Positions 9,582 to 58,523 of a stretch of DNA of 58,523 bases are shown here, piece after piece. Numbering within the stretch: the stretch's first letter is position 1; each line of letters begins with the position of its first letter. Location of the stretch: positions 1 through 58,523 of the forward strand of contig JBAXLH010000005.1 in NCBI GenBank assembly GCA_037134875.1, read 5' to 3'. The notes under the pieces were generated by a model. That model was given only the letters and a program-made list of their open reading frames with translations, did not search any database and had not been told where the DNA came from. Position numbers and translations under genes: made by a program. The stretch comes from a bacterium. GTDB lineage: Bacteria > Patescibacteriota > Minisyncoccia > Phycocordibacterales > DATDWN01.

Positions 9582-9604
9582 ACCCCCACCACACACCCTG
9601 TCAA

Positions 9605-9635: not shown

Positions 9636-9642
9636 GTAGTTG

Positions 9643-10185
9643 TTACTTATTGAGAGCGATTGTCTGAGAAGCGTCTGTCTGTGCAGTTTGAGTCTGGTAT
9701 TTACCCCAACATGCTCTAGATGAGCTCCATGGCTGTGTGCCCTGTTTCTCATACAATTCGCGTGCGTAGGCAGTATTACCTTCGAGTGTATAGATGTTAT
9801 AATTTTTTTCCTGAGATGTTTCGAGATGATAATGCTCGTTTATCTGCATCACACCAACATCCTCATTATTTACAACTCCTCGATGGATACTTCCATCCTT
9901 ATCAAGCTGTCTAAAGTGAGATTCACATTTTGCAATCTGAATCATAATGGGTATGTCAGAGAAGTACTTTCGCACGTACTCTTCGGTACTCATGATGATT
10001 TCCACTTCTTTTCTCGATATTTCTCTTACAATGTTCTGGTCCTCCAGTTTTGGAGCGTCTGTGACTGTGACTGGACTTGCGAGTCCCCCAGCTGCAGACA
10101 TAACCATAAGCAAACTAATAGCAGTGAAATTTAAAATACGTGTGTGTTTAGATAATAATTCTGAATGTAATGCGGTAGTGGACAC
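9643..10185 (-). CDS. Secreted lysozyme-like / SLT (Rpf-like) transglycosylase
   Basis: Hydrophobic N-region, IAKCES catalytic-Glu motif, GVMQIN, and GTQPWSSSRACW; start uncertain. Confidence 0.75.
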   Translation of the reverse strand: MSTTALHSELLSKHTRILNFTAISLLMVMSAAGGLASPVTVTDAPKLEDQNIVREISRKEVEIIMSTEEYVRKYFSDIPIMIQIAKCESHFRQLDKDGSIHRGVVNNEDVGVMQINEHYHLETSQEKNYNIYTLEGNTAYARELYEKQGTQPWSSSRACWGKYQTQTAQTDASQTIALNK

Positions 10186-10302
10186 CCTAAAAGCGGGTTT
10201 CCAAAATAAAAACTCAGTACTTCTGAGTTCCTTATACTATATCATACTCGACCCCATCTTGTCAATACAACAACACAAAAACAACCTCTTGAAAAGGTGC
10301 AA

Positions 10303-10337
10303 AAAATGGCTCAAATAAAGGATATAAGAGCCATTTT
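10303..10337 (-). terminator. Hairpin downstream of the adhesin operon
   Basis: aaaatggctc / gagccatttt inverted repeat. Confidence 0.55.
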
Positions 10338-10375
10338 CAACACACATTATTTACCCCAAAAATCAAGTAGTTTTT

Positions 10376-12070
10376 CTAGAAATCTTGGTACTGGAGAGGT
10401 TGGAGTGAAAAGAGAGCAGAAACGTTCTTTGCAGCGGCAATGTTTGGCAAAACACAGTCATTTTTGCCTATACAATCACCCTGCCAACCCGAAAATCGCC
10501 ACTGAGCTGAGTCTGGATAGGCTCGGAGTGTCACTGTACTGCCCTGATCATATTTTTTTGTACACGTCGCACCACAATTTATAAGACCATCAGGACTTCC
10601 GCTCGTAATACTCTTTACTGACCCACCATAAGTCTTGGTCACATTCACATTGAGCTGACTGTAGACCGTCACACTGGCAGACTTTGAAGCACTACCCGAA
10701 GCATTTGAACAAGTAATCGTATAGGTTGAATTTGTATTGATTCCAGAGATAACCTTATTTCCTTCCGTCGTCGGAGTCACAGCACCTGTCCATCCACCGG
10801 AAATATTGCAGGATGTTGGTGTATTTGTAGTGAGCCAGTAAAGGTTGGTATTAAATCCAGACGTTCCCGACACTGGATTTGCAGTGAAAGTGGTGATGGT
10901 TGGAGGAGCTGCTGGACATGTGACTGAATCAATAGCAAAACCACCATTTGCAGCATTGGCAGAATTTTTTGTTGCCACCCAAATATAATAGGTTTGACCT
11001 GGAGTAGATGCAAATGACTGGCTTGTTCCGGCACTTGTATTTTGAAATGATGGGTTATATATATCAAAAGTTGGACTTACAGAGAAGTATGATTGCGTAT
11101 ACCCAGCTGGCAGAGTCCATGAAGCATTGACCTGAGTACCTGGAGCTGGACAAGAAAGGACAAGGTTGGTTGGAGTTGGTGGTATTGTAACTTTGACTGT
11201 ATCTGATGTTTTTTGTCCGTTAGCACCAGAACACGTAATAGTACTTGAATAATATGTATATGGATTTGGTATATATGGTGATGCACTTGATGTCCCTCCA
11301 TTTGGATTAATCGCAACACTTGGATTTCCTGTTAATAGGTAACCTGAAGATAGAGTACAGCCGCCAGAAGCATTTGCTATAGCACCCCATGACAAACCAT
11401 ACGTAGCTCCAATTGGCAAGTTATTATATGGCCCCCAAATCTGAGGGACTTCAACTGGTCCGTCTGTATTGGTGTAATAACCGGCAGTAAACCAACCATA
11501 ATTTCCACTACCACTTGGCCACGGAACACTTGTAATTTTGAGATCTGGTGTACCAAGTACAGGTATAGGGTTTTGAACTGTAATTGTAAATGTTGACGTA
11601 ACTGGAACCATTTTACCTACCCCATTGAGAGGATATTCATAAACTTGAAAAGTTACAATATATGTACCTGGTGTAATATTTCCACTAATCGTATAAAGAG
11701 CATCATATCCATAATTTGAATAAATTGTTGCATCGAGACCATTACTGCCGTTATTTGCATACTGAAATGTACATGTACCACCTGTTGGACAACCTGTTAC
11801 GCGCCAGCTAACATTTGTCCATCCTGTTTGACCCATATATTGACTACCCGCCCATGTGGTTATTGTTTTTAAATACAACCAATCACCTTGATTGATTGTA
11901 ATATTTCCAGCTGTACTATAATAATATGGCCACAAAGTTGAATTTGTGTAATACTGTTGAACAGCAAGATATCCGGTAGAAGCACGCACCGACACAGTCA
12001 AAAATAATGAAATAATTAGTACTAGCGCAAAGTATGTACTGTATGAAATAAGTGTAGTTAATTTTTTCAT
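10376..12070 (-). CDS. Secreted S/T/G-rich adhesin-like protein (Ig/PKD-like repeats, C-terminal divergent InlB B-repeat-like domain)
   Basis: Signal peptide from MKKLTT (ATG 12070), Cys-bridged beta-rich modules, CGATCTKKYDQGSTVTLRA...FSGWQGDC, ends PLQYQDF. Confidence 0.75.
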   Translation of the reverse strand: MKKLTTLISYSTYFALVLIISLFLTVSVRASTGYLAVQQYYTNSTLWPYYYSTAGNITINQGDWLYLKTITTWAGSQYMGQTGWTNVSWRVTGCPTGGTCTFQYANNGSNGLDATIYSNYGYDALYTISGNITPGTYIVTFQVYEYPLNGVGKMVPVTSTFTITVQNPIPVLGTPDLKITSVPWPSGSGNYGWFTAGYYTNTDGPVEVPQIWGPYNNLPIGATYGLSWGAIANASGGCTLSSGYLLTGNPSVAINPNGGTSSASPYIPNPYTYYSSTITCSGANGQKTSDTVKVTIPPTPTNLVLSCPAPGTQVNASWTLPAGYTQSYFSVSPTFDIYNPSFQNTSAGTSQSFASTPGQTYYIWVATKNSANAANGGFAIDSVTCPAAPPTITTFTANPVSGTSGFNTNLYWLTTNTPTSCNISGGWTGAVTPTTEGNKVISGINTNSTYTITCSNASGSASKSASVTVYSQLNVNVTKTYGGSVKSITSGSPDGLINCGATCTKKYDQGSTVTLRAYPDSAQWRFSGWQGDCIGKNDCVLPNIAAAKNVSALFSLQPLQYQDF

Positions 12071-12071
12071 A

Positions 12072-12524
12072 TTATTTTTGATATCGAATAGATACAAATG
12101 TTAAATCTGCTTGTTTTGTGAGATCCACAGAAATTCGTTGCTGACCTTTTGAAGCGACTATCTTGCCTGTACCGCCTGTATTGGAACTACTACTTGCCAC
12201 GAGCCACTGTTTATATTCGAGAAAAGCTTTGTACATCGAGAAAACAGAACCTATTTTATTGTTTGTTATATATTCCAAATAATCCCCTTTTTGATCTTCT
12301 GGTGTCTTGATTGAATATGATTTTGAGAGAAGGGTTCGCTCAAATATGAGGTCGTCTGGATAGTCCGATGGGTACTGAGGAATTTCAGGTGGTTTTATGA
12401 AAGTTACTGTTGTTGAGACTGTATTCTTACTTTTTATATTGGTGTACACCATATAAGAAACTCCTACAATAGCAACAACAAGAATGACTATGACGAGTAT
12501 TTTTATTACAGTAGCTCTATTCAT
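12072..12524 (-). CDS. Small membrane-anchored protein, paralog of 16288-16755
   Basis: N-terminal TM helix; YPSDYP, Y..L...QW and KGQQRISV motifs. Confidence 0.8.
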   Translation of the reverse strand: MNRATVIKILVIVILVVAIVGVSYMVYTNIKSKNTVSTTVTFIKPPEIPQYPSDYPDDLIFERTLLSKSYSIKTPEDQKGDYLEYITNNKIGSVFSMYKAFLEYKQWLVASSSSNTGGTGKIVASKGQQRISVDLTKQADLTFVSIRYQK

Positions 12525-12533
12525 TGTGTTTGA

Positions 12534-15500
12534 TTAAAACTCTTGATAATTAAGTGGATCGAGAGAAAAGAGTGCCTTTGCCGTTTTGGCCGCACCTGTC
12601 ACAGAAACAGCACATACATTTCCACTCGTTGGTCGAGTACAATCCCCTTCCCATCCAACAAATTTCCATGCACTCGAGCTTGGTACTGCACGGAGTGTAA
12701 CCGTCGTGCCATTACTATAACTTTTTACACACGATATACCACAAGAAATTCCCCCATCGTCACTCGCTACTGTTCCTCCATATGAAGGTTGGACTGTCAG
12801 GTTGTATGTTGTCAAAATAATTGGTGTGACTGTTACTTGTCTCGTTACACTACCTGCACTGTTTTGACATACGAGGGTAAATGTTGTTGGAGTCGAGAAT
12901 CCTGTGACTGTCTCACTGCCCCCGGCAATTGATTTTGCACCACTCCATCCTCCAGATGCAGTACAAGATGTTGGACTGCCTGTAGTTGTCCATGTGAGAG
13001 TTGTTGTACGTGGCAGAGCACTTGTTGGTGTCGTTGCAGAAAGATTGAGAGTTGGAGTCACAACTGCAGTAGATACTGCGACAGTCTTACTTGCTGTTGC
13101 AGGTGTTGGTATGGAACACAAGTTTGCAAAACCAGTATGGTTGGCTACTGTACATGTATATGTTTTGGTTTGGGCTGACGAGAGCGCTGCACACGAGAAA
13201 TTTGCTGTTGTATTACCTGTACCTGTCCAATTTACAAATGTACACTCAGAAGGATTTAGGGTGACATAAGCATTGTTGACCCCATAATTACAACTAACAG
13301 CAATTGGTGTACCGGTCTGAGCAGTAGTTGGTGCTGTTACTGTACCAGCTGTTGGGGTAATACATGATCCAGAAGCACTTGGATCTACACAAGTCGTATT
13401 TTGCAGAATATATGAACTGGAAGCACCATTTGCACCATATGCTGAATGAACCCACACGCTATATGTTTGTCCTGGTGTGGTTGAAAACGATTGACTTGTT
13501 CCAACACTAGTTGAAACACCAGCAACAGTTGGACTTTCGTAGAAATAGCTGGATGAATAACCTGCGGGAAGACTCCATGTTGCGGAGAGTGTTGTGCCAG
13601 GAGTAGGACAAGAAAGAACAAGGTTTGTTGGAGGAGGAGGTGTGTTTACTACAAGACTGTCAGAGCCAGACCCGCCTGCACCAGTACACGAGAGTGTATG
13701 TGTTTTTGTAAGAGCATTAGTTGTAAATATTGAACTGCCACCATTTACATTCACAGATGCTCCATCCAAAGTACAACTTGTTGCACCAGAAACAGCACCC
13801 CATGACAGAGTATAGTCATAGCCGTAGTGAAGCATTACTGGGCCATCAGTATTTACATATGGTGCCCACCACACAGTGGTATGAGCCTTGTCAGCCCATG
13901 CAGTGAGTTTCAAATCAGGCGCTGGAGGTGTTGGACCGACAACTGTATATGGTGTGGATGCTTGAGAATTAAAATCTACAGTATCCAAATTTACAAATGA
14001 GTTTGCATATGCTCTAGCTGTATATGTACCAGCAGTATTCACCGTCCAGTAATCCTGACTCCATAACGAATGATTACTTGTGAGAGAATACACGCGCGAC
14101 GCATGTGGAGCAAGCATACTTGAATCGGAAGTGTAGACATTTATATCACTCGAAGTATTTTTTGGTATATTGCCAGATTTATTTCCGTAAATACTGTTAT
14201 AGAAAACTGGACCACCGCCAGGCAAAAAAGCTGTGGTGTACGAGCTGTTATTTATAATCGCTAAATATGGGTAAATCTTTTCACCAATATTGAATGTACT
14301 TTTTATATTACCGTTTTGATCGGTCAAATAAAATTGTGTAATTGATAGTGTTGATTTTCCACCACTTCCGCCAGTTGTCGGCAAACAATAATAAATTGCA
14401 CAAGATGTATTACATTTTTGAACAGAAACAGATGATACTGGACAACTATTTGTGTTTTGTGCCCCATTATCACATTGTTCTGTGCTTTGTACTATTCCAT
14501 CTCCACAACTTGCTGGTGCACTACACGAGTTGAGTCGACAACTGATACTACATGTCGAAGGACATGCACCGTTTGCAGACCCACGATCACATTGTTCGCC
14601 TGTTTCTTGTATGCCATTACCACACACCGGTCCGGATGGAGCTGGTGCTTGGAGATTTACTGTGACTTGTGCGAGAGTTCCGGCAGATGTTGTGTCCCCT
14701 CTTTTTTGCAAATAAAATACTGTGCCATTATTTACCCATGCGCCTGATGTGTATGTTCCAGCACCTGGTCCACCCATCATAGCAAGAGTTCCGGATGGAC
14801 TACTGACACGCAAATCATATTCACACGTTGCATTGGTTGAAATAGTTGTCACTCCGACTGGCTGACTTGTGATAATAGGATTTGGATTTGCAGAAATGGT
14901 TCCGGTACATGCTGGAGGGTTTGAGGTTTTAACTGCACTACATGATGCATTTGCTCCACCGTTTGTCCCGGCACACTGCCAAGTCCACGGACCTGTACCA
15001 GAAAAACCGGTTACTACTCCAAGAGCACATAAACCTGCACTTGAGGAACTCAAAGTTGAAAATGATTGACCATTTGAAGATCCACACTGACCGGCCGTAG
15101 AAACAACTGGATCTGAGACTGTTATTGAGGGACACTGAGTTTGTCTTCCAATACCGTCAGTGAGTTTTATTCTATCGTATGTTCCTGAGGTTGAGAAAGA
15201 TGTTGTAAATGTATCACTCCCAACATTTAATGTAGACTTGGATGAAGGATTTCCTCCTTGAGCTGACCAATTAAAATTACCGTCCCCATTTATACCAGTA
15301 AAAGTTACACTTTGATTTGTGTATACAGATGTAGAACCAGAAGTAAGTGTACATTCTGGTGGAGTAGTCACCACTGGCGGTTGACTTATTGTCACCACCC
15401 TATCCTGAGATTCTGAGTTGACGGGAGACGTACATGTCAGACGATATGTCTGTGTTGGATTTGATGGACTGTATGTCAGATTTCCTGTAGATACTTGTCC

Positions 15501-16277
15501 CGATGAATCTGTACCAGATGTTACTGGAGCATATGTACCCCCAGACAATACACTAAGTGTCCATGGAAATGGACCTCCTGTGCCGAAAGCAAAACTGACA
15601 GATGCACTCGTACCAGACTGTACAGATGAAGGAGTTATGCTAAATGCCTGAATAGAACACTTTGGAGCTTGTCGTATTTTTATATAAAAATCCTCATCAA
15701 GAATATTACCTGTCTTTGATGATACGCCTATCCTCCAAGGACCAGCACCTCTTGTAGCATTTGGGTCAACCTGCAAAGTGAAGACTGCTTGATAAGTACC
15801 ATTTCCACCTTGGAATACTCTCTCACAAATTCTTGCGCCATATGCAGGATATGTATACGATGATGCTCCACCATTTATACCGCCAGTTGCAGTACAATTG
15901 CTAATCTGTACAGTCTGACTTGGGTTGGAAGAATTTTGGTAGAAATAACCAAGTGGTGTTCCATTAAATATAGAACCAATGCCCAAAGAAGGTGTATCTG
16001 TTAAAGCCGAAGTTACCTCAATTGTTCCTGTAACAGTAATCACAGCACCAGGATCAACTTCGTATGTATAAATGGGACTACCATCATCATTTTTTTCTCC
16101 AGAATCACTGAATGTCCCACTTGGTGAATACACGTTCATTGAAATACTTCTATTGAAAGTATCTGCACGTACAACTGAAATTATTCCAGAAAAATAATAT
16201 GCACACAGGAAGCTCAAAAATATCATACTACCTATTACCGCCTTTTTCCCAATTTTATTTTTTATTTTTTGTACCAT
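12534..16277 (-). CDS. Large secreted adhesin/S-layer-like protein with Myxococcus-type Cys-rich repeats and a C-terminal InlB B-repeat-like domain
   Basis: Signal peptide; CGNGIQETGEQCD and CGDGIVQSTEQCD repeats; module shared with 10376-12070; ends PLNYQEF. Confidence 0.8.
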   Translation of the reverse strand: MVQKIKNKIGKKAVIGSMIFLSFLCAYYFSGIISVVRADTFNRSISMNVYSPSGTFSDSGEKNDDGSPIYTYEVDPGAVITVTGTIEVTSALTDTPSLGIGSIFNGTPLGYFYQNSSNPSQTVQISNCTATGGINGGASSYTYPAYGARICERVFQGGNGTYQAVFTLQVDPNATRGAGPWRIGVSSKTGNILDEDFYIKIRQAPKCSIQAFSITPSSVQSGTSASVSFAFGTGGPFPWTLSVLSGGTYAPVTSGTDSSGQVSTGNLTYSPSNPTQTYRLTCTSPVNSESQDRVVTISQPPVVTTPPECTLTSGSTSVYTNQSVTFTGINGDGNFNWSAQGGNPSSKSTLNVGSDTFTTSFSTSGTYDRIKLTDGIGRQTQCPSITVSDPVVSTAGQCGSSNGQSFSTLSSSSAGLCALGVVTGFSGTGPWTWQCAGTNGGANASCSAVKTSNPPACTGTISANPNPIITSQPVGVTTISTNATCEYDLRVSSPSGTLAMMGGPGAGTYTSGAWVNNGTVFYLQKRGDTTSAGTLAQVTVNLQAPAPSGPVCGNGIQETGEQCDRGSANGACPSTCSISCRLNSCSAPASCGDGIVQSTEQCDNGAQNTNSCPVSSVSVQKCNTSCAIYYCLPTTGGSGGKSTLSITQFYLTDQNGNIKSTFNIGEKIYPYLAIINNSSYTTAFLPGGGPVFYNSIYGNKSGNIPKNTSSDINVYTSDSSMLAPHASRVYSLTSNHSLWSQDYWTVNTAGTYTARAYANSFVNLDTVDFNSQASTPYTVVGPTPPAPDLKLTAWADKAHTTVWWAPYVNTDGPVMLHYGYDYTLSWGAVSGATSCTLDGASVNVNGGSSIFTTNALTKTHTLSCTGAGGSGSDSLVVNTPPPPTNLVLSCPTPGTTLSATWSLPAGYSSSYFYESPTVAGVSTSVGTSQSFSTTPGQTYSVWVHSAYGANGASSSYILQNTTCVDPSASGSCITPTAGTVTAPTTAQTGTPIAVSCNYGVNNAYVTLNPSECTFVNWTGTGNTTANFSCAALSSAQTKTYTCTVANHTGFANLCSIPTPATASKTVAVSTAVVTPTLNLSATTPTSALPRTTTLTWTTTGSPTSCTASGGWSGAKSIAGGSETVTGFSTPTTFTLVCQNSAGSVTRQVTVTPIILTTYNLTVQPSYGGTVASDDGGISCGISCVKSYSNGTTVTLRAVPSSSAWKFVGWEGDCTRPTSGNVCAVSVTGAAKTAKALFSLDPLNYQEF

Positions 16278-16287
16278 AGTTTTTTAA

Positions 16288-16755
16288 TTATTTTTCTAGT
16301 TGAAATGTTATTTGAATATCATTGACCTTTACGGGTGCGATAATGACAGAAACCTGCTGACTCCCTTTTTTAACCTGTATGAGTGCTGTATTTTTGGCAA
16401 TTGAATTTGAAATAACAACCCAGCCTTTTTGTGGTAACTCCGTTGCGTATAGATTTATTGCATCAAGCATATTTTTGCCTGAAATATATGAAATATTGAT
16501 TTGTTTTCTACCATCAGGCATTTTTACCTCTCCGGAATAGTTAATTTTTTTGTCTTCCAGCATTATTTCTCTCGGAAAATCTGAAGGTAGACCATCATAC
16601 AGGGAAACTGTGGTACCTGTTGCGTAGCCTTCTGGAGTAAGAACTTTGTATGGTTTTTTCTTTGTAAGCTCAGGAATAAAAACGATACCGATAACAATTA
16701 TTAAAATTAAAATAACAACTACTATAAAATAGTTTGAATTAGATTTATTTTCCAT
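16288..16755 (-). CDS. Small membrane-anchored protein, paralog of 12072-12524
   Basis: N-terminal TM helix; LPSDFP, Y..L..KGW and KGSQQVSV motifs. Confidence 0.8.
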   Translation of the reverse strand: MENKSNSNYFIVVVILILIIVIGIVFIPELTKKKPYKVLTPEGYATGTTVSLYDGLPSDFPREIMLEDKKINYSGEVKMPDGRKQINISYISGKNMLDAINLYATELPQKGWVVISNSIAKNTALIQVKKGSQQVSVIIAPVKVNDIQITFQLEK

Positions 16756-16837
16756 ACCAAAATTATACTATATATAAAAAGTAAATGACAGAGAAAGACA
16801 CAAAAATGTGGATAAGATACAGGGTTTAAAGATAAAC

Positions 16838-16879
16838 AAAAAGTCCGCGATGGGTGCCAGAGGCAACCGATCACGGACT
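16838..16879 (-). terminator. Intrinsic terminator of the GC-rich gene
   Basis: Minus strand agtccgtgatcggttgcc-tct-ggcacccatcgcggact followed by tttt. Confidence 0.75.
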
Positions 16880-16886
16880 GTTATAT

Positions 16887-18623
16887 TTACGGGACGTCAT
16901 TCCCATCACCTCCGTCGTCAGATGACTTAGGAGTTTTGGGAGCAATCACCGTGAGATCAATAGCGTTACTCACTGCACTATTGAGCTCAATATAAAGTTT
17001 TGCCTGACCAATCGGCAGATCCGGAACACTCACTGTGATGAGCTCCGAAGCGCACGACTGGATCCCGGCATAGAACTTGTCTCCAAACTCGCTGACGAAC
17101 GCCACACGAGTTTTGCCACCCGAACCCACGCAACCTTCGGTGGGTAGAGGAGCAACATAAGTCGCCGGATCATTATGTGTCACACCCTTTGCGAGGATAG
17201 ACACAGTAGACCCAGACGAAATCGTGGAAACTTTATTGAGTGTAGTCGGGTCGACCGCACTCATTACAAATGTGTCGTCAAACTGCGTCCAAAAATCCAC
17301 TACAGACGAGTTCGACGAGCTGGTAAATACTCGAATCTTCGTGCCATCCGTGATCTCGACGTCGCCAACAGGGTTGTTGACAACAAAGAGCCCAGGATAA
17401 CGCTCGACTTTGTACTTACCAATAGAAGCACCTGACAGATCCAGACGAGTCTGGGTCGACAGGCTATTGTATTCGGGTCCGTTGGTAACAAGGATGAGCT
17501 TGTTACGCGTCCAATCTCCCTCTTTGTAGACCACCATATACTTGGTGTCATAGAGAGACGGGTCGCACGAACCATTATTAACTACGCAGGTCTCCCTCTT
17601 ATACCCGCCAGTCGGAAGAGGGTTAGTCTTCGGATAGAACGGGTATGCGACATCGCCAGAAGACCCATCATCAACCTTGTCCCAAATCACAGTCCTGTTG
17701 ACATCAGTCACCCGATACCAAACTGTGGAAATCTTTGGAAACGTAGTAGAGTTACTTTTTCTTTCTACCAGGTTGACCATAAATCCAGAAGAATTGACAA
17801 CAGCCCAATTTTCTCCGTCAGAACTCCCAGAATCAAAGGTTTGGAGTGACACTCCATCAGTGCTGAAGCCCAGTTTCTGCTTCATTTCTTCGCTTGGAGC
17901 GAAGGCGCACTTAGTCTCACGGAGATACGTCGACGGGAGAACCCCATTGACCTTTCCGGAAACAGTGTCAATCGCATTAATGATATCATCCCGGGTCGTG
18001 AGACCCGTGATAGCCGTATCGATAGCTCGAAAGTCGCCGTTGTTCACAGCACCGAGCAACTCGATCGGTCCAGCCGCGCAGGCGTAGCCAGGCGATGGAT
18101 TATGCCAAAAGTCCGAAGATCCGCCCACAGTCAGCCAGTCGGCCGACTTGAAGACGGGTGCCATCCAGACATTGACAAACGGTTTTATTGATGGATCATC
18201 CTTTGCCATCTCTTTGTAGAGCCAGGCAGCCTTCGCTTTCGCGAAACCTTCTGGCAAAGAGAAGTCATTGGACAAAACAGTGGAGCAAGGGGTAAACCTT
18301 GCCAAAATATATTCATGAATGAGAACCCGATTGCTCGGATCAGTCACGTCATATTTATTGACTGGGCCATATTTGTTTCCAAACATGGTATGACCCTCGC
18401 AGACATAGGTGCCCGCGAACGTGGTCGTATTGTCCCATTCAATAGTAATGGAAGACCTCTGCGGAACAGAGATCCGTTCCAAATACGGAGTGACCTTGTT
18501 GATCACCCAGTCGGCATCAAAATTCGACGCCGAGTTGTTACCTGCATAGTTTATTTTTACCTCCGCCCCGAGTTGGGACAGAAGTGCAAACGTGACAATG
18601 AACAATCTGTTCAGTTTGGACAT
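16887..18623 (-). CDS. GC-rich secreted protein, probably horizontally acquired; degenerate gluzincin-like N-domain and IPT-like C-domain
   Basis: ATG 18623 preceded by AGGAGG and an upstream TGGTATAAT; signal peptide; LIHEYIL...LPEGFA; spot counts of three 60-nt lines gave 38-55% GC. Confidence 0.75.
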   Translation of the reverse strand: MSKLNRLFIVTFALLSQLGAEVKINYAGNNSASNFDADWVINKVTPYLERISVPQRSSITIEWDNTTTFAGTYVCEGHTMFGNKYGPVNKYDVTDPSNRVLIHEYILARFTPCSTVLSNDFSLPEGFAKAKAAWLYKEMAKDDPSIKPFVNVWMAPVFKSADWLTVGGSSDFWHNPSPGYACAAGPIELLGAVNNGDFRAIDTAITGLTTRDDIINAIDTVSGKVNGVLPSTYLRETKCAFAPSEEMKQKLGFSTDGVSLQTFDSGSSDGENWAVVNSSGFMVNLVERKSNSTTFPKISTVWYRVTDVNRTVIWDKVDDGSSGDVAYPFYPKTNPLPTGGYKRETCVVNNGSCDPSLYDTKYMVVYKEGDWTRNKLILVTNGPEYNSLSTQTRLDLSGASIGKYKVERYPGLFVVNNPVGDVEITDGTKIRVFTSSSNSSVVDFWTQFDDTFVMSAVDPTTLNKVSTISSGSTVSILAKGVTHNDPATYVAPLPTEGCVGSGGKTRVAFVSEFGDKFYAGIQSCASELITVSVPDLPIGQAKLYIELNSAVSNAIDLTVIAPKTPKSSDDGGDGNDVP

Positions 18624-18866
18624 GATGTCCCTCCTGCCCGTATTATACCAAGCACATTTTATAAAGTAAAGCAAGTTTACAACTGTGGATAACCTATTTT
18701 TAATAAAATGTAGCCTACAATATAGCTATTTTACCAAAAAATCACATTATTTTATCAAAAATTTGACCCATTTTTAGGTTGATAATTTGCCAAAATATCG
18801 ATACTATGAATATGGAAGCGCCAAGCTTACTACGGCTCGTCACTGAGCTCAATCGGGAGGAAAAAA

Positions 18867-18938
18867 GTGAAAAAAATCAAGCCGATTCGTAAAGCAAACG
18901 GTTGCTCAAGATGTGCAACCCGAAGTTCTAGTCATTAA
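18867..18938 (+). CDS. Possible 23-aa basic CxxC peptide (MKKIKPIRKANGCSRCATRSSSH), GTG start
   Basis: GGGAGG 6 nt upstream of GTG; inside a unit with promoter (TTGATA-17-TACTAT) and terminator. Confidence 0.35.
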   Translation: MKKIKPIRKANGCSRCATRSSSH

Positions 18939-18960
18939 ATCTAGTAATTATTTTTTAATA

Positions 18961-18993
18961 CCGCCTCAGATGTTTCTATAGCATCTTTGGCGG
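18961..18993 (+). terminator. Hairpin terminator
   Basis: ccgcctcagatg ... catctttggcgg followed by atttaatttat. Confidence 0.6.
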
Positions 18994-19027
18994 ATTTAAT
19001 TTATGAAAAATATGATAATATATAATT

Positions 19028-19483
19028 ATGGATAACTCGCATCAAATTTTTATTGAGGTGATTAGTAATCTAAATAAAAACAGTATTGAACCAATTGTTT
19101 ATGGTTCTTTTGGTCTGTACCTACTACTTAAAATGAATAATGAGTCAAATGATCTTGATTTTATTATAGATAAACCCGAACAGTTTACTGTTTGTAAAAA
19201 AGTATTGAAAAAAATGGGATTTGAAATTGATCCGGATCACGATCGAGAACTTGAAAGAAATGGTTTCTACGTATCTTTTATTGACAGATCAGAAATTGAG
19301 ACATTAATTTCCGAACAACTCAAGATAAAAAAGTTTTCTGATAACTTGGGAAATTATTTTAATATTGACATCTCGCAATATAAAAAAATTTATAGTAAGG
19401 GATTAGAAAATAAATACAGAAAAGCAAAAAAAGAGAAAGAAGATCTGGAGAAAATAAGGATGATTGAAAAATCTCAAAATTAA
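19028..19483 (+). CDS. Small nucleotidyltransferase-like protein (Pol beta superfamily)
   Basis: VYGS...NDLDF signature; low GC (25-30% in spot counts). Confidence 0.6.
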   Translation: MDNSHQIFIEVISNLNKNSIEPIVYGSFGLYLLLKMNNESNDLDFIIDKPEQFTVCKKVLKKMGFEIDPDHDRELERNGFYVSFIDRSEIETLISEQLKIKKFSDNLGNYFNIDISQYKKIYSKGLENKYRKAKKEKEDLEKIRMIEKSQN

Positions 19484-19995
19484 TGAAACTATACATTATT
19501 CCAGGATATAAGGAGGATTTGAGAAATAAAGGCTACAAGTCCATCATCGCAAAAACAAAACACACATATGATGTCAGATTTTTGAAATTAAACTATGATC
19601 AGTTATTGTGTGATTTTCCTCATATAGAACCAAATTCAATTGTTATTGGTTTTTCTATTGGGGCTCTTATTGCTTACTATATTTCAACTAAAATCAAACT
19701 GGACAAAGCGGTGATTTGTTCTATGTCCCCTTTGTTAGAAAGTGATTTTAATACATTCGATAAAAAAGATCAGAGAGAAATAATCAAACTCCTAACTCTC
19801 AAAACATGGAATAAATTAAAACAAATGAAGTATACTAAATCATTATCACAATCAAAAAATATTTTTCTATTCGGAGAAAATGAAATTGCAACACTGAAAA
19901 ACAGATCAAAAAAACTGGGAAAATATGTTGAAATAAAAAATACTGGACACGAACTTACTGAGACCTATGTGAAGGAAATATTAAAATATATATAA
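19483..19995 (+). CDS. Small alpha/beta hydrolase
   Basis: GFSIG nucleophile elbow and C-terminal GHE; TAATG overlap with the upstream gene. Confidence 0.7.
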   Translation: MKLYIIPGYKEDLRNKGYKSIIAKTKHTYDVRFLKLNYDQLLCDFPHIEPNSIVIGFSIGALIAYYISTKIKLDKAVICSMSPLLESDFNTFDKKDQREIIKLLTLKTWNKLKQMKYTKSLSQSKNIFLFGENEIATLKNRSKKLGKYVEIKNTGHELTETYVKEILKYI

Positions 19996-20004
19996 TTTTT
20001 TATT

Positions 20005-26702: not shown

Positions 26703-26775
26703 ATTGAGTACATATTATCACAAAATTATCAATTTTCAATAATGCTTATTATTTGAAGTAAAATCAATTTGAAGG

Positions 26776-26915
26776 ATTTTATTTTTGGAGCATCCGCAAG
26801 GAGCAAGCATGGTTTTGTCAACGACCCCGAGCTTTGCGAGGAGCTCATTGACAAATTGCGACTGAGGACAGAATAAACCCGGCGCTGGCCGGGTTTATGT
26901 CTCCAAAAATAAAAT
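26776..26915. repeat. Palindromic repeat element, copy A
   Basis: Perfect 15-bp outer inverted repeat attttatttttggag/ctccaaaaataaaat; core 26806-26871 aligns with 51892-51953. Confidence 0.85.
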
Positions 26916-26941
26916 AATGAGAATTGATTTTACGAAAACGA

Positions 26942-27724: not shown

Positions 27725-27848
27725 AAACTTTCAAATTTGACTAAGGTCGCGTATGAAATTTACAAAAGAATTGGAGCCTGCCTGAGTGTACAGGTGACAA
27801 TTCTTTTGTAAATTTCAGACGATGAGATTAGTCATAATTTGGAAGTTT
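27725..27848. repeat. 124-bp long hairpin filling the rplQ-rplM spacer
   Basis: Perfect 20-bp inner stem 27754-27773/27798-27817 plus an imperfect ~20-bp outer stem. Confidence 0.85.
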
Positions 27849-39901: not shown

Positions 39902-41107
39902 TTAGGCTACTTTTTCAATAATTCCCCCACCGAGACAAACCTCTCCGGTATACAAAACAGCAGATTGACCGACAGCTACACCATTTTGAGGCACTTCAAA
40001 ATCAATACAATATTCATTATCTTGTTTTGTAACAGTACACCGTTGTTTTTCTTGTCTGTATCTAATTCGCACAGAACAGACAAAAGGAAAAGCTGGTTCT
40101 TGTCCGGAAATGAAATGCAAATTTTTGACAGTGATTTTTTTGGTTGAAAAAACAGTTTCTTTTTCTGTCTCTTTGTCTGCAACAGTAATCGTATTTTTTT
40201 CCAAATCTTTTGACACCACAAAAAGTTTTGGACTGTTTGCGGTTTTTTTGATTATTTCAAATCCATGACGCTCACCGATGGTAGAAAATATTGCACCGTT
40301 GTGTTTGCCGATGACTTCACCTTTTGTATTTAGAACATCGCCAGGTTTTTCTGAAATATAATGAGCCAAAAATTCCTTCATATCGAGTTTACCCAGAAAA
40401 CAAACTCCTTGACTATCTTTTTTGGTAGCTGTCGGCAAGCCAAACTTCTCAGCGAGCGTTCTGACTTCCGGCTTAGTCATTCCACCAATAGGAAAAAGAA
40501 TATGTGAGAGCTGGTCTTGACTTAGTGTGTACAGAAAATATGACTGATCTTTGTTTTTGTCGACAGATTCGTGGAGCTCAAAAAACTCAAAATCTTTTGA
40601 ATGGGAATGTTCTGACGGAACATTGCGCAGGCCGACGGGCTGAGCACGAAGAAATTTGCCAGCAGGCAAATATTCTGTTTCCGGCAGAATATTCCCTGAA
40701 AAATATTTTGAGTTTTTATGCACCACGGCATAGTGTCCCGTCGCAACATAATCAGCTCCCATTTCAAGAGCTTTTTTGAGAAAAACACCGAACTTTACAT
40801 ACTTGTTACAAAACACGTCCGGGTTTGGTGTGCGACCGACGCGATATTCGTTTATCATATAATCTGCAACCTCTTTTTTATATTCTTCCTGACAGTCCAG
40901 TGTTATAAACGGTACACCGAGCGTCGCACAAACTCGCATTGCATCCCGTCGTTCTTCTCGCCAATTACACTCAAGAAAATCAGGATTCCAAACACGCAAA
41001 AAAACTCCAGTCACATCGTAGCCCTGTCTTTTGAGCAAAGCCAAAGCAACAGAGCTATCCACTCCACCAGAAACTCCCACAAAAACTTTTTTTCCTTTTG
41101 AGACCAT
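39902..41107 (-). CDS. mnmA: tRNA 2-thiouridylase MnmA with a ~40-aa insertion
   Basis: SGGVDS, TPNPDVFCN, ATGHY, KDQSYFL and SQGVCF. Confidence 0.96.
   Translation of the reverse strand: MVSKGKKVFVGVSGGVDSSVALALLKRQGYDVTGVFLRVWNPDFLECNWREERRDAMRVCATLGVPFITLDCQEEYKKEVADYMINEYRVGRTPNPDVFCNKYVKFGVFLKKALEMGADYVATGHYAVVHKNSKYFSGNILPETEYLPAGKFLRAQPVGLRNVPSEHSHSKDFEFFELHESVDKNKDQSYFLYTLSQDQLSHILFPIGGMTKPEVRTLAEKFGLPTATKKDSQGVCFLGKLDMKEFLAHYISEKPGDVLNTKGEVIGKHNGAIFSTIGERHGFEIIKKTANSPKLFVVSKDLEKNTITVADKETEKETVFSTKKITVKNLHFISGQEPAFPFVCSVRIRYRQEKQRCTVTKQDNEYCIDFEVPQNGVAVGQSAVLYTGEVCLGGGIIEKVA
40581..40717. repeat. Palindromic element inserted in-frame in mnmA
   Basis: Perfect 13-bp outer inverted repeat aaaaactcaaaat/attttgagttttt enclosing at least three hairpins. 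Confidence 0.8.
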
Positions 41108-41133: not shown

Positions 41134-42126
41134 TTATTTCAAATACTTTGCTTTGTTTCTTTTATGTTCCTCAAATGTTTTGGCGTAATGTATCGTTCCG
41201 TTTTTTTCTGTCAGATAGTACAAATAATCCGACGTGACTGGAGTTGCAGCCGCAATAATAGCATTGACTCCCGGATTGCCGATCGGTCCCGGCGGTAAAC
41301 CTTTGTGTGTGTATGTGTTATACGGAGAATCAATTTTCAAATCTGCCAGTGTCAGATTGTATGTATTTTTTCCATTTATATACAGAAATGATGAGTCGAC
41401 TTGGAGAGGCATTCCGATAGATATTCTCTTCCATAGTATTCCGGAGACAGTCTGTCGATCTGCAGGCAACACTTCATCTTCCAAAATAGATGCCATTGTA
41501 ATAATGTCTGACAAACTTTTTCCAGATTTTTTTACTTCCGCCAACTGACTCACTTTTTGTTCAAAATTTTGATTCATCATTTGTATAATCTCTTTTGCTC
41601 CATATGATGGAGGAAGAAAATATGTATCAGGAAACAAATATCCCTCACGTGGTTTTGCAAGACTCAAAAATTCCGCTTTATTGAAATTTGTTAAGTTTTT
41701 CTCGAGATAATCCCCGATTTGCGACACAGTCCAACCCTCAGGAATCGTCACTTTGACTGCATTGATTCTAAACTGTCCAGCAACCAGTCGCTCAGCAAGG
41801 ACAAGAACATTTTCTTTTTGATCTAAGAGATAATCACCGGCAATTACCTTTTTTTCTCCTCCAAACAGAATAACGAGCGAACGGAAAAGAAATGTTGATT
41901 TAACAATATGACTATCTTTTAAATTTATACTTATTGACTGCAATGATTCACCAGAATGTATTGTGAGTGTACTACCTATCGGAAAATCAGAAGGAGCAGA
42001 AAAAATAAAAACCACGACAATTGACAGGACAAACGCAAAAGAAAAAGCAATCATTGCTTTTTTCTTTTCAGATGTAAACTCAGAAAAATAATGTCTCAGT
42101 TTTTCGATCCAGATTTTGTAATCCAT
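41134..42126 (-). CDS. mltG: Endolytic transglycosylase MltG
   Basis: TM anchor, IPEG, EGYLFPDTY, ASILEDE, LQVD, SPYNTY and GLPPGPIGNPG. Confidence 0.93.
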   Translation of the reverse strand: MDYKIWIEKLRHYFSEFTSEKKKAMIAFSFAFVLSIVVVFIFSAPSDFPIGSTLTIHSGESLQSISINLKDSHIVKSTFLFRSLVILFGGEKKVIAGDYLLDQKENVLVLAERLVAGQFRINAVKVTIPEGWTVSQIGDYLEKNLTNFNKAEFLSLAKPREGYLFPDTYFLPPSYGAKEIIQMMNQNFEQKVSQLAEVKKSGKSLSDIITMASILEDEVLPADRQTVSGILWKRISIGMPLQVDSSFLYINGKNTYNLTLADLKIDSPYNTYTHKGLPPGPIGNPGVNAIIAAATPVTSDYLYYLTEKNGTIHYAKTFEEHKRNKAKYLK

Positions 42127-51845: not shown

Positions 51846-52015
51846 ATAAAAGGACAACCTAAAATAATTTTTGGAGACTCCGCAGGCCGTGAGCATGGTC
51901 TTGTCAACGACCGAGCGAAGCGAGGCTCATTGACAAGTTACGGTCGAGGACAGCCGAGAATGCTCGCAGGAGCATTCGAGGTTGCTCCAGAAATTATTTT
52001 AGATTGTCCTTTTAT
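51846..52015. repeat. Palindromic repeat element, copy B
   Basis: 31-bp outer inverted repeat with 2 mismatches (51846-51876 / 51985-52015); core aligns with 26806-26871. Confidence 0.85.
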
Positions 52016-52027: not shown

Positions 52028-52252
52028 TCACACCAACTTCTTCAAATCCACCTCATACCTTTTCACAACTTCCATAGTAGCAGACATTTGGTCCTTGCCT
52101 TTTTTCATCTCTTCCTGTACTTCAAGACCAATTTTTTGAAATAGTTCTGGATCTTTTTCGAGCATAGCAAACACTTTGTCCTGTTCGGCTTGTGGTACAC
52201 CCTTCATCTGGTTTGATAACATTTTTCGCATTAAGAAATTTTTTATGGACAT
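52028..52252 (-). CDS. Small helical hypothetical protein
   Basis: Clean ORF with a K/E/M-rich helical pattern. Confidence 0.7.
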   Translation of the reverse strand: MSIKNFLMRKMLSNQMKGVPQAEQDKVFAMLEKDPELFQKIGLEVQEEMKKGKDQMSATMEVVKRYEVDLKKLV

Positions 52253-52296
52253 ATATTTATTTACAACTTTTTATTTTTCTATGGTATCATAAATTT

Positions 52297-53097
52297 ATGA
52301 AATGGAGAATCATATTATCACTTTTTGCAGTCCTCGGAATTGTAGGCTGTGGCCTTGTTGGAACTGTCCTATACTATCATTTTGACTGGAGTGACTTGGC
52401 AGATATTTCTTTCTACGAAAATCTTGCAAACCCTTCTATGCGCATAGTCCGTGTACAGGAAGGACTTCGAAAAGAACAGGTTGCAGATGTGCTTGGTAGT
52501 AAGCTCGGATGGGATGATGCAGAAAAAAATCAATTTGTGAATGCACACCTCGCCCTCAATACAACAAACTCAGAAGGATACTACTTCCCAAAGAGCTATA
52601 TCATTCAAAAAGACGAGGGACCAATAACTATTAGTAATTTGATGTTTGATGAATTTCAAAAGCAAACAAGTAAAATCATAAAACCAAAGAAAACAAAAAT
52701 TGTAAACGAAGACACCGCACTCAAGATTGCCTCTATTATACAACGAGAAGCGGCTGGTAAAAATGACATGCGACTTATTTCAGGTATTATTTGGAATCGT
52801 ATTTTCAAAGGTATGAAGCTCCAAATGGATGCCACTTTGCAATATGCCAAAGGAACCGAGAATGATTGGTGGCCACAGGTTGATCCAAAAGACAAACAGA
52901 TTGATTCTCCATACAACACATATATGTATCCATCACTTCCTCCATCTCCTATTGCTAATCCTGGCCTTGCAGCTATCGAGGCAGCATATAATCCCCAACC
53001 AACAAATTGCCTCTTTTATTTACACGATAAAAAAGGACAGATCCATTGCTCGGCAACGTACGAAGGTCACAAAGCAAATATCGCAAGGTATTATTAA
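52297..53097 (+). CDS. mltG: Second MltG-like endolytic transglycosylase
   Basis: TM anchor, EGYYFPKSY, ASIIQRE, LQMDAT, SPYNTY and LPPSPIANPG; start at ATG 52297. Confidence 0.88.
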   Translation: MKWRIILSLFAVLGIVGCGLVGTVLYYHFDWSDLADISFYENLANPSMRIVRVQEGLRKEQVADVLGSKLGWDDAEKNQFVNAHLALNTTNSEGYYFPKSYIIQKDEGPITISNLMFDEFQKQTSKIIKPKKTKIVNEDTALKIASIIQREAAGKNDMRLISGIIWNRIFKGMKLQMDATLQYAKGTENDWWPQVDPKDKQIDSPYNTYMYPSLPPSPIANPGLAAIEAAYNPQPTNCLFYLHDKKGQIHCSATYEGHKANIARYY

Positions 53098-57998: not shown

Positions 57999-58259
57999 AT
58001 CTTTTTTATTTTAAGAGAAGCGGAGACTGTGTGTGGACGAGACACACAGCGCCGGCTAATCGCCAGACTGCCCCTCTCTTCCCTTTTTACCTGCTGTGAC
58101 AAAAAGAGAAGAAGTGAGGTTCCAGCGCATTTTCAATGATCTTTCCTTACTTATATTATATCACTTTTTTATTAAAAAAACAGCCCTGATTTATATACCA
58201 AACTTGCATAGAATAAAAAATAATGTAAAATAGAATTTGTCATTTTGAGTAGTAAATAA

Positions 58260-58487
58260 GGGCCCTTAGCTTCCGGTAGAGGCCCGAATGAGTTTTGAAA
58301 ATTTAATATGGGCCCTTAGCTTAGTTGGTGGAGTGAGATTGGGGTGGGACCCAATCGCAAGACCGGAGCGCGACGGCGCGAGGTGGGGTCGAGAGATTTT
58401 TCAGCAGAAAAATACTCGTGACACTCATTTGCCAAATGAGGCTAGTGGGTTCTAAAATAAGTTCAGTGAAGTTTGAAAATTTAATAT
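58260..58487 (+). pseudogene. Two decayed tandem copies of the tRNA-Ala 5' region, the second carrying an ~88-bp structured insertion
   Basis: gggcccttagctt starts at 58260 and 58310; tttgaaaatttaatatgggcccttagcttagttggt is repeated before 58310 and 58488. Confidence 0.75.
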
Positions 58488-58523
58488 GGGCCCTTAGCTT
58501 AGTTGGTAGAGCGCCTCATTTGC
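58488..58523 (+). tRNA. tRNA-Ala(TGC), 5' part; truncated by the window end
   Basis: GGGCCCT-TA-GCTT-AGTTGGT-AGAGC-G-CCTCA-TT-TGC; G3 fits Ala identity. Confidence 0.85.

Follow-up and report, generated by a model that had tools for sequence, protein, structure and literature searches.

Within a stretch of 58,523 nt of bacterial DNA (hereafter, the window), the gene encoding the tRNA 2-thiouridine synthase MnmA is interrupted by a palindrome that leaves the reading frame open. What is this structure, and how did it come to lie inside a housekeeping gene? CPR/Patescibacteria have tiny genomes that are thought to be poor in repetitive DNA, and a conserved structured repeat inside essential genes of such genomes is unexpected. 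The first-pass annotation had interpreted the palindrome as a DNA element translated in frame, reminiscent of the palindromic elements of Rickettsia, and the core of this interpretation is supported by the analyses reported here.

The insert in MnmA

The host gene mnmA is encoded on the minus strand at positions 39902–41107, as an ORF of 401 aa. Its product matches the crystal structure 2DER in sequence (E 8e-88), contains the Pfam domains PF03054, PF20259 and PF20258, and has a predicted model that matches the fold of 2DET (TM 0.90). When the protein was aligned with its E. coli counterpart, query residues 128–178 were skipped. The spacing between the motifs ATGHY and KDQSYFL is 59 aa in the window protein, compared with 15–19 aa in the shortest of 120 homologues; MnmA thus carries about 40 extra residues, in agreement with the earlier estimate. 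The DNA responsible is a palindromic element, a rod of approximately 137 nt at 40581–40717, delineated by inverted repeats and fold z-scores, which corresponds roughly to residues 132–175 (SKYFSG...SKDFEF; an example of a peptide spanning the insert is YFSGNILPETEYLPAGK). The ORF is intact across the element, and the fold z-scores of the element range from -5.8 to -8.9. In the AlphaFold model of MnmA the mean pLDDT is 86.9 and that of the insert only 43–63. The insert is flanked there by strands 127–132 and 175–180, which places it at the tip of a β-hairpin; in the model the insertion site is a surface loop, as had been expected.

Most mnmA orthologues, among the 120 homologues compared, do not have the element, and the insertion is kept in a clade of MnmA orthologues at 65–75% identity. 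A scan of genome contigs with the MnmA protein recovered 20 loci at 41–64% identity, with no close relatives among them, and these distant loci include empty sites as well as unrelated hairpins at the same position of mnmA. The site harbors insertions of 25, 30, 35, 50 and 60 aa, and unrelated GC-rich hairpins were found there in distant lineages (L008, L024).

Fold of the palindrome

The outer arms of the element, at 40581–40598 and 40700–40717, are 18 nt long and 94% complementary, and they contain the 13-bp perfect outer stem that had been noted before. A second tier of 18-nt arms (40603–40620 and 40679–40696, 89% complementary) also pairs at minimum energy, whether the element is folded as DNA or either strand as RNA. 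The rod ends in a three-way junction at 40619–40683 on the plus strand, which is the conserved core of the repeat family described below and matches our model R1 over its full length (1–65). Two hairpins on this strand belong to the core: hairpin 1 (40650–40676), AGAAATTTGCC-AGCA-GGCAAATATTCT, with a CAGCAG loop, was recognized by its inverted repeat and by covariation in the family, and hairpin 2 (40630–40641), GGCC-GACG-GGCT, was located by the R1 alignment and the sequence. The family consensus of hairpin 2 is GCGC-GACG-GCGC, and in the mnmA copy its pairs are preserved by double changes, with one G·U on the plus strand.

The mRNA strand of the element folds with -54.4 kcal/mol (z -5.8) and the plus strand, as RNA, with -61.3 kcal/mol (z -7.2), while the z-score of the element as DNA is -8.9; in each of the three cases none of 200 shuffles was as good. 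The better-folding strand, which we denote the CAGCAG strand, is in the mnmA copy the plus strand, antisense to mnmA. Compared with the rest of the window, the element is the second strongest 140-nt fold and the sole strong one within a coding sequence.

The palindrome had been described as multi-branched, with three hairpins. All three are present (7 bp, 7 bp and 9 bp in the inverted-repeat scan), but when the window copy and all its orthologues are folded to minimum energy, the arms of the gaatgttc... and atattctg... hairpins pair with each other in every case. These two hairpins are alternative local pairings of the two arms, and the fold kept in orthologues is a rod with a three-way junction at its end. 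Within the outer arm of the element there are native-looking A/T runs beside FEL. An internal terminator of mnmA was considered and rejected, as hairpin 1 alone was flagged by the terminator scan, with a weak signal on each strand. A K-turn came to mind for the G-A/G-A sequences on either side of hairpin 2, but we do not claim one because the bulge length is inconsistent between the subclasses of the family.

Relatives of the insert

Blastn of the whole mnmA element against the window and the 10-kb flanks of the orthologues revealed no second full-length copy. As kinship between copies is confined to the core, a structure-aware model was needed. Scanning metagenomes with a core pattern yielded at least 120 stretches, and at least 93 of the pattern matches, mostly in low-GC contigs, contain a complete hairpin 1. 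We treated as chance the matches without hairpin 1 (at least 31, most of them in high-GC contigs), and likewise four pattern matches in viral contigs of 59–62% GC, none with hairpin 1. The conserved core is found at more than 80 low-GC metagenome loci, in rods of 137–190 nt. Because an exact-match pattern was used to gather the copies, their numbers are minimum estimates, and an invariant hairpin 2 and loop are built into the collected set.

The covariance model R1 was built from 83 metagenome copies only, and the window sequence was left out of it. In the window it matched 40619–40683 (45.2 bits, E 3.6e-13) and 58357–58425 (74.7 bits, E 6.3e-23), with no third match below E 0.4; these E-values are rough, because the calibration was shortened. 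Applied to 409 kb of related loci, R1 also detected the element in mnmA of seven orthologues, together with five other copies. The resemblance of atttgcc-agca-ggcaaat to an insertion near tRNA-Ala, to which the first-pass annotation had drawn attention, reflects real homology by the covariance model and is highly significant (E about 4e-13 for mnmA and 6e-23 for the tRNA-Ala copy). Its other suggestion, a likeness to element copy B (51846–52015), failed: the model E-value there exceeds 10, and blastn gives no link. Copy B and the stretch at 26758–26933 constitute a separate family.

In the layout of the family, a core of about 65 nt forms a three-way junction, in which hairpin 1 (a covarying stem with the CAGCAG loop) and hairpin 2 are closed by a covarying 3-bp helix. 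Long arms extend the core; they differ by locus yet are still paired. The terminal inverted repeats vary between copies and the center is conserved. Across the family, paired cells amount to 93.3% (71.5% in shuffles) and cells changed on both sides number 302 (86 in shuffles). The covariation score is 0.549, compared with 0.152 for shuffled alignments (0 of 500 shuffles reached 0.549) and at most 0.143 when the partners were slid. The copies reside in Patescibacteria MAGs, where they lie between genes (often directly after a stop codon), beside tRNA genes and inside ORFs.

At gathering thresholds, Rfam gave no match in the whole window, and at E up to 10 the two family copies and copy B gave only chance-level matches, for example to miRNA and snoRNA models. 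We found no description of the family in full-text literature searches or in Rfam 15, and this repeat family of CPR/Patescibacteria is apparently undescribed. The best explanation overall, which we consider probable, is that the mnmA insert is one copy of a dispersed, structured palindromic repeat family specific to CPR/Patescibacteria.

The tRNA-linked copy and strand asymmetry

The second family member in the window, GGAGTGAG...CGTGAC, is located at 58331–58427 on the plus strand, after a 5′ fragment of tRNA-Ala. It represents a tRNA-linked subclass, class 2, whose layout was seen also at other loci. A 45-nt sequence comprising the upstream leader and the first 24 nt of tRNA-Ala (58289–58333, plus strand) is directly repeated at 58467–58511 (93%), so that the class 2 element is bracketed. 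The 5′ half of an intact-looking tRNA-Ala(UGC) follows at 58488–58523 on the plus strand, where the Rfam tRNA model scores 19.3 bits with the 3′ end cut by the window end. ARAGORN reported no tRNA in the window; the intact tRNA-Ala runs past its end. Since class 2 copies are on the same strand as the adjacent tRNA genes, co-transcription with these genes is probable.

Folding favors the CAGCAG strand over its complement in 51 of the 58 copies of rod type (class 1; p 2e-9) and likewise in 21 of the 23 tRNA-linked copies, and G·U pairs in the strand comparison number 204 vs 127. This bias across the family hints at a single-stranded RNA or DNA form. Replication-strand composition was examined as a source of the G·U bias and does not fit, as the CAGCAG strand is the C-rich plus strand in the window, with two copies only.

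Copies within other proteins

In addition to MnmA, the Pfam-confirmed hosts of in-frame copies are TsaD (two copies), UvrD (two), DnaE, HrcA, PGM/PMM, PheT and TGT, making eight protein families in all, with copies in both orientations and in at least four reading frames. This diversity of hosts rests on DNA loci and not on the peptide search, in which a 42-aa profile of the 'SATARARGIFQQKNIR' frame, used in a word-index protein search ill-suited to this query, returned four tiny hypothetical ORFs only. Five of the six reading frames of the core contain no stop codons, and therefore read-through is possible for copies that lie in a permissive surface loop and have a length divisible by three. 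There are no stops in the host frame in any of the nine in-frame copies in other genes or in the mnmA copies examined, in a sample whose members were recognized in the first place by their open frame. The search for copies that break a gene covered only about 80 loci and found none: three same-frame candidates and five flanking ORF pairs that resembled split genes turned out to be complete neighboring genes in every case.

Evolution of the element within mnmA

Comparison of the window gene with its orthologue P0002 gave a nucleotide divergence of 19% in the insert, 28% in the rest of the gene and 52% at the third positions of the latter. By codon position, the differences are distributed 9/9/6 in the insert vs 68/45/184 in the rest (chi-square p 0.001). 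Orthologues share the palindromy of the DNA and not the peptide, and the insert is free of constraint at the peptide level, the nucleic-acid hairpin being conserved instead. The outer arms of the window copy differ in sequence from those of P0002 and P0003 and have retained their pairing, and orthologues at 65–70% protein identity show the same architecture with different arms.

P0002 and P0003 have mnmA genes that diverge at 12.9% of sites, with 110-nt cores that match to 99% but are inverted. The opposite core orientations come from separate assemblies (L002 vs L003) and lead to unrelated peptides at one MnmA site (NILPETEYLPAGKFLRAQ vs NVLAEHRAGRRSEREEIRQQ). A further orthologue, P0016, is missing exactly 90 nt relative to P0008, to which it is 89% identical, and the element is present in the outgroup P0011. 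The sequence CTCAA occurs as microhomology at both junctions of this indel (P0011/P0008 vs P0016); it might be a target-site duplication, but a deletion via microhomology would account for it just as well. An inversion between close relatives and a clean 90-nt loss in mnmA are shown by these comparisons.

Comparison with known systems

Rickettsia palindromic elements (RPEs) are, according to the part of PMC10969869 that relates the work of Ogata et al. (2000), dispersed palindromic repeats located in frame in Rickettsia housekeeping genes. As far as that account goes, the two families have in common a palindromic repeat of ~100–150 bp dispersed in a reduced genome, in-frame positions in many unrelated housekeeping genes, an added peptide tolerated by the fold, and the fact that a transposase is known for neither. 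The parallel drawn in the first-pass annotation holds by analogy, because of the lack of codon-position bias, the inverted 99% core and the exact 90-nt loss; it concerns behavior and not sequence, and the host belongs to the CPR, not to the Alphaproteobacteria. Unlike RPEs, the CPR family has a conserved center with locus-specific arms, a tRNA-linked subclass, a strand-specific fold bias and strong covariation in old orthologous copies. With several frames and both orientations in use, the CPR family lacks any counterpart to a single 'RPE peptide'.

MITEs in genes (ERIC/RU, Correia, BOX) are similarly small, non-autonomous hairpin repeats, mostly intergenic and occasionally in frame (PMC2759123, PMC10969869). 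They are defined by terminal inverted repeats common to the copies and by target-site duplications (PMC2759123, PMC10969869), whereas the CPR family has variable termini and shows, at a single indel, no more than a possible microhomology of 5 nt. Recognition of a single-stranded hairpin with one active strand, as thought for REP/BIME (RAYT), for the hairpin ends of IS200/IS605 and for integron attC, would fit the strand bias. REPs, however, are extragenic and 20–40 nt long, with a GTAG or CGTC head (PMC3733652), whereas the CPR element is far larger, can lie in genes, and shows CGTC at one place alone, the hairpin 2 loop as read on the CTGCTG strand. In attC the ends are conserved (R''/L''...L'/R' boxes) and the center is variable, while in the CPR family the center is conserved and the ends are variable. 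No Y1 transposase or integrase was found among the window genes.

Intragenic invertons, reportedly described by Chanin et al. in 2024, are DNA inversions within coding genes. As in these, inverted repeats flank a segment of coding sequence here, and both orientations are open and specify different peptides. The CPR family differs in that each orientation comes from a separate genome, the genomes being close relatives, that a dispersed repeat makes up the segment that is flipped, and that no invertase is known. Mitochondrial genes of Nematomorpha carry coding palindromes (PMC6649704), which resemble the CPR copies in being long inverted repeats that are read through in essential protein-coding genes. 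In Nematomorpha, however, the arms lie in conserved coding sequence of organelle genes, and there is no dispersed family with a non-coding-like core.

Possible mechanism and alternative explanations

We propose that a copy whose length is a multiple of three would be read through if it landed in a surface loop that accepts it. Most likely the mnmA insert is translated and forms a disordered loop of ~40 residues, tolerated by the enzyme. Either flipping in situ or re-copying can reverse the orientation of the element, which can also disappear as an in-frame block. We infer that a single-stranded hairpin of the CAGCAG strand is the form in which the family spreads or is kept, and that the family is selfish, with no benefit to the cell. 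The window genes include no recognizable transposase, recombinase or reverse transcriptase, and no transposase domain was found among the called genes of the mnmA loci. The long-term pairing, the nucleotide constraint and the strand bias fit a useful RNA/DNA motif at least as well as a purely selfish repeat.

A more specific and tentative proposal, which we put forward with some doubt, is that the three-way-junction core is the active part of a new single-strand (CAGCAG) element, either an RNA co-transcribed with tRNAs or a hairpin of single-stranded DNA. tRNA genes would be its landing or expression sites, with the 5′ part of the tRNA duplicated; it would copy into hairpin loops, including those of other copies (L056), and would live in essential genes with nearly all frames open. 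If this is true, its flipping recodes surface loops of housekeeping enzymes across the CPR radiation.

If confirmed, the repeat family would allow the tolerance of proteins to such segments, and their recruitment, to be tested. It would account for puzzling insertions and low-confidence loops in CPR proteins and for spurious small ORFs over intergenic copies, and would provide a covariance model for masking or annotating the family in metagenome-assembled genomes. A new copying mechanism or a new small RNA would then be suggested by the orientation flips, the tRNA-linked subclass and the structure specific to one strand, and both could be tested with existing metatranscriptomes.

An alternative that we consider possible, though we lean against it, is that the core is a functional single-stranded module from which the cell benefits, such as a hairpin bound by a protein in RNA processing, replication or defense, or a small structured RNA transcribed from the CAGCAG strand. 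Copies within genes would then be kept as a working motif, e.g., an antisense or cis-acting regulator of mnmA. Such a module would agree with the strong sequence conservation and covariation across distant lineages, with nucleotides that are constrained where the peptide is free, with the better folding of one strand regardless of the direction of the host gene, with the strand that class 2 copies share with adjacent tRNA genes, and with arms that remain paired in orthologous copies despite sequence drift. It is harder to reconcile with the mixed contexts of the copies (3′ ends, 5′ leaders, eight unrelated proteins, both orientations to transcription) and with the dispensability of the element in mnmA, where most orthologues do without it and P0016 has lost it cleanly. 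In addition, no Rfam family matches it, and no partner protein was identified.

The remaining explanations are far less probable. That the insert is an adaptive segment of MnmA, e.g., a new interaction loop whose DNA palindromy is incidental, we regard as the least credible of them: the persistence of the insertion in the orthologue clade at 65–75% identity speaks for it, but there is no third-position excess of changes, orientation flips generate unrelated peptides at the same site, pLDDT is low, and the same DNA core occurs in unrelated proteins and in non-coding DNA. It is only slightly more plausible, and still very improbable, that the element behaves as an intervening sequence, excised from the mRNA or skipped by the ribosome, yielding MnmA without the extra 40 residues. 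In CPR bacteria the mature rRNA lacks insertions carried by the rRNA genes, a precedent that joins the compact conserved structure and the presence of a family member within tRNA-like sequence in favor of this idea; however, the frame is open in 9/9 copies elsewhere and in all mnmA copies examined, the P0016 loss is of exactly 90 nt, both orientations occur in the same gene, no ribozyme family of Rfam matches, and the ~80 loci contained no gene-breaking copy. Unlikely as well, though less so, is the idea that no pre-existing element was inserted and that template switching, or errors of fold-back replication, made the palindrome grow on the spot from the hairpin-tip codons of mnmA. The many lengths of insertion and the unrelated GC-rich hairpins at this site (L008, L024), the arms that change on both sides together, and the A/T runs of native appearance beside FEL all suit such growth, and interior inversion is a known outcome of template switching. 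But dozens of copies at unrelated loci are homologous to the 65-nt core, which hence did not arise anew in mnmA; for the core, this explanation is thereby refuted. Growth in place may still account for the paired arms and for the flipping of the interior.

A structured palindrome in frame within mnmA

The mnmA gene (39902-41107, - strand) encodes a tRNA 2-thiouridine synthase of 401 aa, which matched the MnmA crystal structure 2DER by sequence (E = 8e-88). The alignment was interrupted between query residues 127 and 179, where the E. coli chain contributes just some 11 residues. We compared 120 MnmA homologues, every one from Patescibacteria-type assemblies; the interval between ATGHY and KDQSYFL spans 59 aa in the window MnmA and 15-19 aa in the shortest homologues. 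A nested palindrome (40581-40717) underlies these extra residues, and in it an inverted-repeat search identified outer arms of 18 nt (94%) containing a 13-bp perfect stem, a second tier of 18 nt (89%), and inner hairpins. Relative to dinucleotide shuffles it folded strongly as the mRNA strand (-54.4 kcal/mol, z = -5.8), as + strand RNA (-61.3 kcal/mol, z = -7.2) and as DNA (z = -8.9). In a sliding fold scan it ranked second in the entire window and was the sole strong fold within a coding region. Inverted repeats, fold z-scores and homologue lengths thus agree on the palindrome, 13-bp stem and extra residues described in the first-pass annotation. The strongest fold of the window (regression z = -6.7) is a hairpin at 27750-27821, between rplM (L13) and rplQ (L17), with 31-nt arms, 87% complementary, and a 10-nt loop.

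An AlphaFold model of MnmA was built on 100 homologues (mean pLDDT 86.9; target-length-normalised TM 0.90-0.91 to MnmA-tRNA co-crystal structures). Residues 133-174 (pLDDT 43-63) were flanked by strands 127-132 and 175-180, and the insert is accordingly placed by the model at a beta-hairpin turn that it would lengthen, where a surface loop had been expected. Other CPR lineages have insertions of widely differing length at this turn, and unrelated GC-rich hairpins occupy it in frame in a Vogelbacteria MAG (L008:9768-9930) and a distant MAG (L024:5745-5883), with fold z of -3.5 and -2.2 and peptides that include ...VIPAQAGIQ... and ...CHSEGVATTEES.... The turn is therefore permissive and accepts several kinds of palindromic insert.

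Inversion, divergence and loss among mnmA orthologues

The nearest relatives are syntenic (YceG -> mnmA -> ATP-cone/Mrr gene) and carry a palindrome at the identical codon position. In the homologue P0002 it has the same orientation as in the window, with 84% identity across 126 nt. The homologue P0003 is 87% identical to the P0002 gene when the insert is left out, and its 110-nt core is the P0002 core inverted, at 99% identity: one difference was seen where about 14 were expected at the gene's rate (P ~1e-5). The outer arms of the three are unlike in sequence and have kept their pairing. In five more distant orthologues with 65-70% protein identity (L025, L026, L027, L028 and L154) the palindrome is built in the same way, in either orientation, from a stem that is long and variable, an ATTTTTC-TGCT-GAAAAAT-type hairpin and a CGCGCC-GTCG-CGC-type GC hairpin. 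Aligning orthologues, as the first-pass annotation had proposed, revealed a palindrome that these relatives share at the DNA level, with peptides wholly unlike between the two orientations (e.g., NILPETEYLPAGKFLRAQ vs NVLAEHRAGRRSEREEIRQQ).

Between the window and P0002, substitutions by codon position were 9/9/6 in the insert vs 68/45/184 elsewhere in the gene (chi-square p = 0.001), and nucleotide divergence was 19% in the insert vs 28% in the gene overall and 52% at third positions. The even spread and the lower divergence indicate that the insert is constrained as nucleic acid and not as peptide. Two further homologues, P0016 and P0008, are 89% identical in DNA, and P0016 is without exactly 90 nt, corresponding to the proximal stem and core, with CTCAA present at both junctions of the gap. 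As the outgroup P0011 carries the element, this gap represents an in-frame loss.

A dispersed family with a covarying core

Read as its reverse complement, the tRNA-Ala-linked insertion that lies at the window end aligns with the mnmA cores. We searched public metagenome contigs with the pattern CTGCTG N(8-30) TCGCGCCGTCGCGCT and found at least 120 stretches with the core pattern. Among 124 matches, comprising the listed metagenome stretches and viral hits, 93 had the whole core and came mostly from low-GC contigs; the 31 without hairpin 1, most from high-GC contigs, were taken as chance. In class 1 rods the core stands between inverted repeats that are long and particular to each locus. Hairpin 1 is extended in class 2 copies (GGTCGCG...CGTGACC), which usually lie about 100-200 nt or less from a tRNA gene, on its strand.

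A covariance model of the core, R1, was trained on 83 metagenome copies with the window and mnmA sequences left out. It matched exactly two places in the window, 58357-58425 (+; 74.7 bits, E = 6e-23) and the mnmA core at 40619-40683 (+; 45.2 bits, E = 4e-13), the third-best E being 0.47. The kinship noticed earlier between the mnmA hairpin and the tRNA-Ala insertion is thereby borne out by an independent model. Over 409 kb of related loci R1 matched the seven mnmA copies and five others, which suggests that a copy occurs about once in every few tens of kilobases. In the family alignment, paired cells amounted to 93.3% (71.5% in shuffles), cells with both sides changed numbered 302 (86 in shuffles), and the covariation score was 0.549 vs 0.152 shuffled, a value reached in 0/500 shuffles, with slid partners at or below 0.143. 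Hairpin 1 showed double changes in nine of its ten pairs, and so did all three of the pairs that close hairpin 2. That hairpin 2 and the loop are invariant in the collected set is a product of the search pattern; outside that set hairpin 2 reads GGCC/GGCT in the window and GCTC/GAGC in P0008, so it covaries as well.

At the window end (58243-58523) there are three tandem units, each with a leader and a tRNA-Ala 5' end (TTTGAAAATTTAATAT-GGGCCCTTAGCTT...). The second passes, after GGT-GGAG, into a class 2 element, behind which stands a hairpin (ACTCATTTGCCAAATGAG) that resembles an anticodon arm and has a GCC loop; the third is an intact-looking tRNA-Ala(UGC) that the window end truncates. This arrangement of 5' tRNA fragment, element and complete tRNA of matching identity recurs at two other loci, L098 (tRNA-Phe) and L038 (tRNA-Ile), which suggests that the element inserts into tRNA genes and that their 5' part is duplicated in the process. 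In the metagenome contig Ga0209541_10042874 (L056:1-170) the hairpin 2 loop of a class 1 element contains a nested class 2 element (…GCTCGCCCCGTCG/GCCACAGG…CACTCC/GCAATG…, slashes marking junctions); the family can therefore insert into its own copies, here possibly at the CCGTCG loop. Four hypothetical database proteins of 45-68 aa (P0121-P0124) match the SATARARGIFQQKNIR reading of the core and probably represent false gene predictions at intergenic copies.

Copies within other genes

Nine metagenome copies lie within long ORFs whose products Pfam named as TsaD (two), UvrD/PcrA (two), DnaE, HrcA, phosphogluco/mannomutase, PheT and TGT, and in all nine the domain alignment spans the insert. 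The sense strand is the CAGCAG strand in six and the opposite strand in three, and at least four reading frames are used; the consensus core, read directly, is stop-free in five of six frames. Many other copies start within about 30 nt after a stop codon or lie in 5' leaders. A search for gene-breaking copies gave three same-frame candidates and five flanking-ORF pairs, all of which were complete neighbouring genes (e.g., DnaB and RecR, LemA and M48 peptidase, MreB and HolB). Reading frames that stay open, a loss of exactly 90 nt and the absence of broken genes from this search argue that the element is probably translated through rather than excised.

Strand asymmetry and possible explanations

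When the two strands were folded as RNA, the one reading AGCGCGACGGCGCGAG...CAGCAG was the more stable in 51 of 58 copies of class 1 (Wilcoxon p = 2e-9) and 21 of 23 of class 2, and it had more G.U pairs (204 vs 127 and 93 vs 49, respectively). For the mnmA insert that strand is the + strand of the window, which runs antisense to the gene (-61.3 vs -54.4 kcal/mol), and the bias is independent of host gene direction. It suggests a single-stranded form of one polarity, RNA or single-stranded DNA, in which the element is either selected or generated. The bias may instead reflect replication-strand composition; against this, both window copies are on the C-rich strand.

The best-supported account is a dispersed structured repeat that occupies loops at the protein surface, tolerates translation and is maintained at the level of nucleic acid, resembling in its behaviour the Rickettsia palindromic elements (RPE; Ogata et al., 2000, as summarised in PMC10969869). 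The parallel with RPE drawn in the first-pass annotation thus appears apt, by analogy, for a repeat found in frame in several genes. RPE are the closest analogue, and the family differs from them in its conserved centre with variable arms, its use of several frames and both orientations, its tRNA-linked subclass and its strand bias. Growth of the palindrome in place may account for the upkeep of the arms and the flipping of the interior but not for a core common to copies at unrelated loci. The frame data speak against intron-like removal, and the orientation flips and codon pattern against an adaptive MnmA loop. In view of the strand bias and of the covariation seen in old orthologous copies, an RNA or DNA motif useful to the cell is a serious, though less likely, alternative or complement to the dispersed repeat. 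The repeat is not a MITE in the strict sense, as termini differ between copies and no transposase was seen among the window genes. A full-text literature search found no account of such elements in CPR/Patescibacteria, and Rfam 15 held no matching family.

Other features of the window

The first-pass annotation had also likened one hairpin of the mnmA insert to an element at 51846-52015. This likeness did not hold: the element has no R1 match and forms a separate family with 26758-26933. Both are intergenic, about 170 nt each, one between grpE and rpsI and the other between a GH18 gene and the second yceG, and neither had an R1 match or a convincing Rfam match. Their termini are inverted repeats of 31-33 nt (…TTTTTGGAG / CTCCAAAAA…) and they have a common interior (…GCATGGT.TTGTCAACGACC…GCTCATTGACAA…GAGGACAG). 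The two YceG-family (MltG-like) genes (41134-42126 and 52192-53097) are on opposite strands, separated by 10 kb. At 9171-20000 a series of ORFs had no Pfam match at all; among their products are - strand proteins of 1247, 595 and 573 aa. A pair of neighbouring, near-perfect hairpins at 9006-9093 (17 nt, 94%; 14 nt, 100%), between convergent genes, has the look of a bidirectional terminator.
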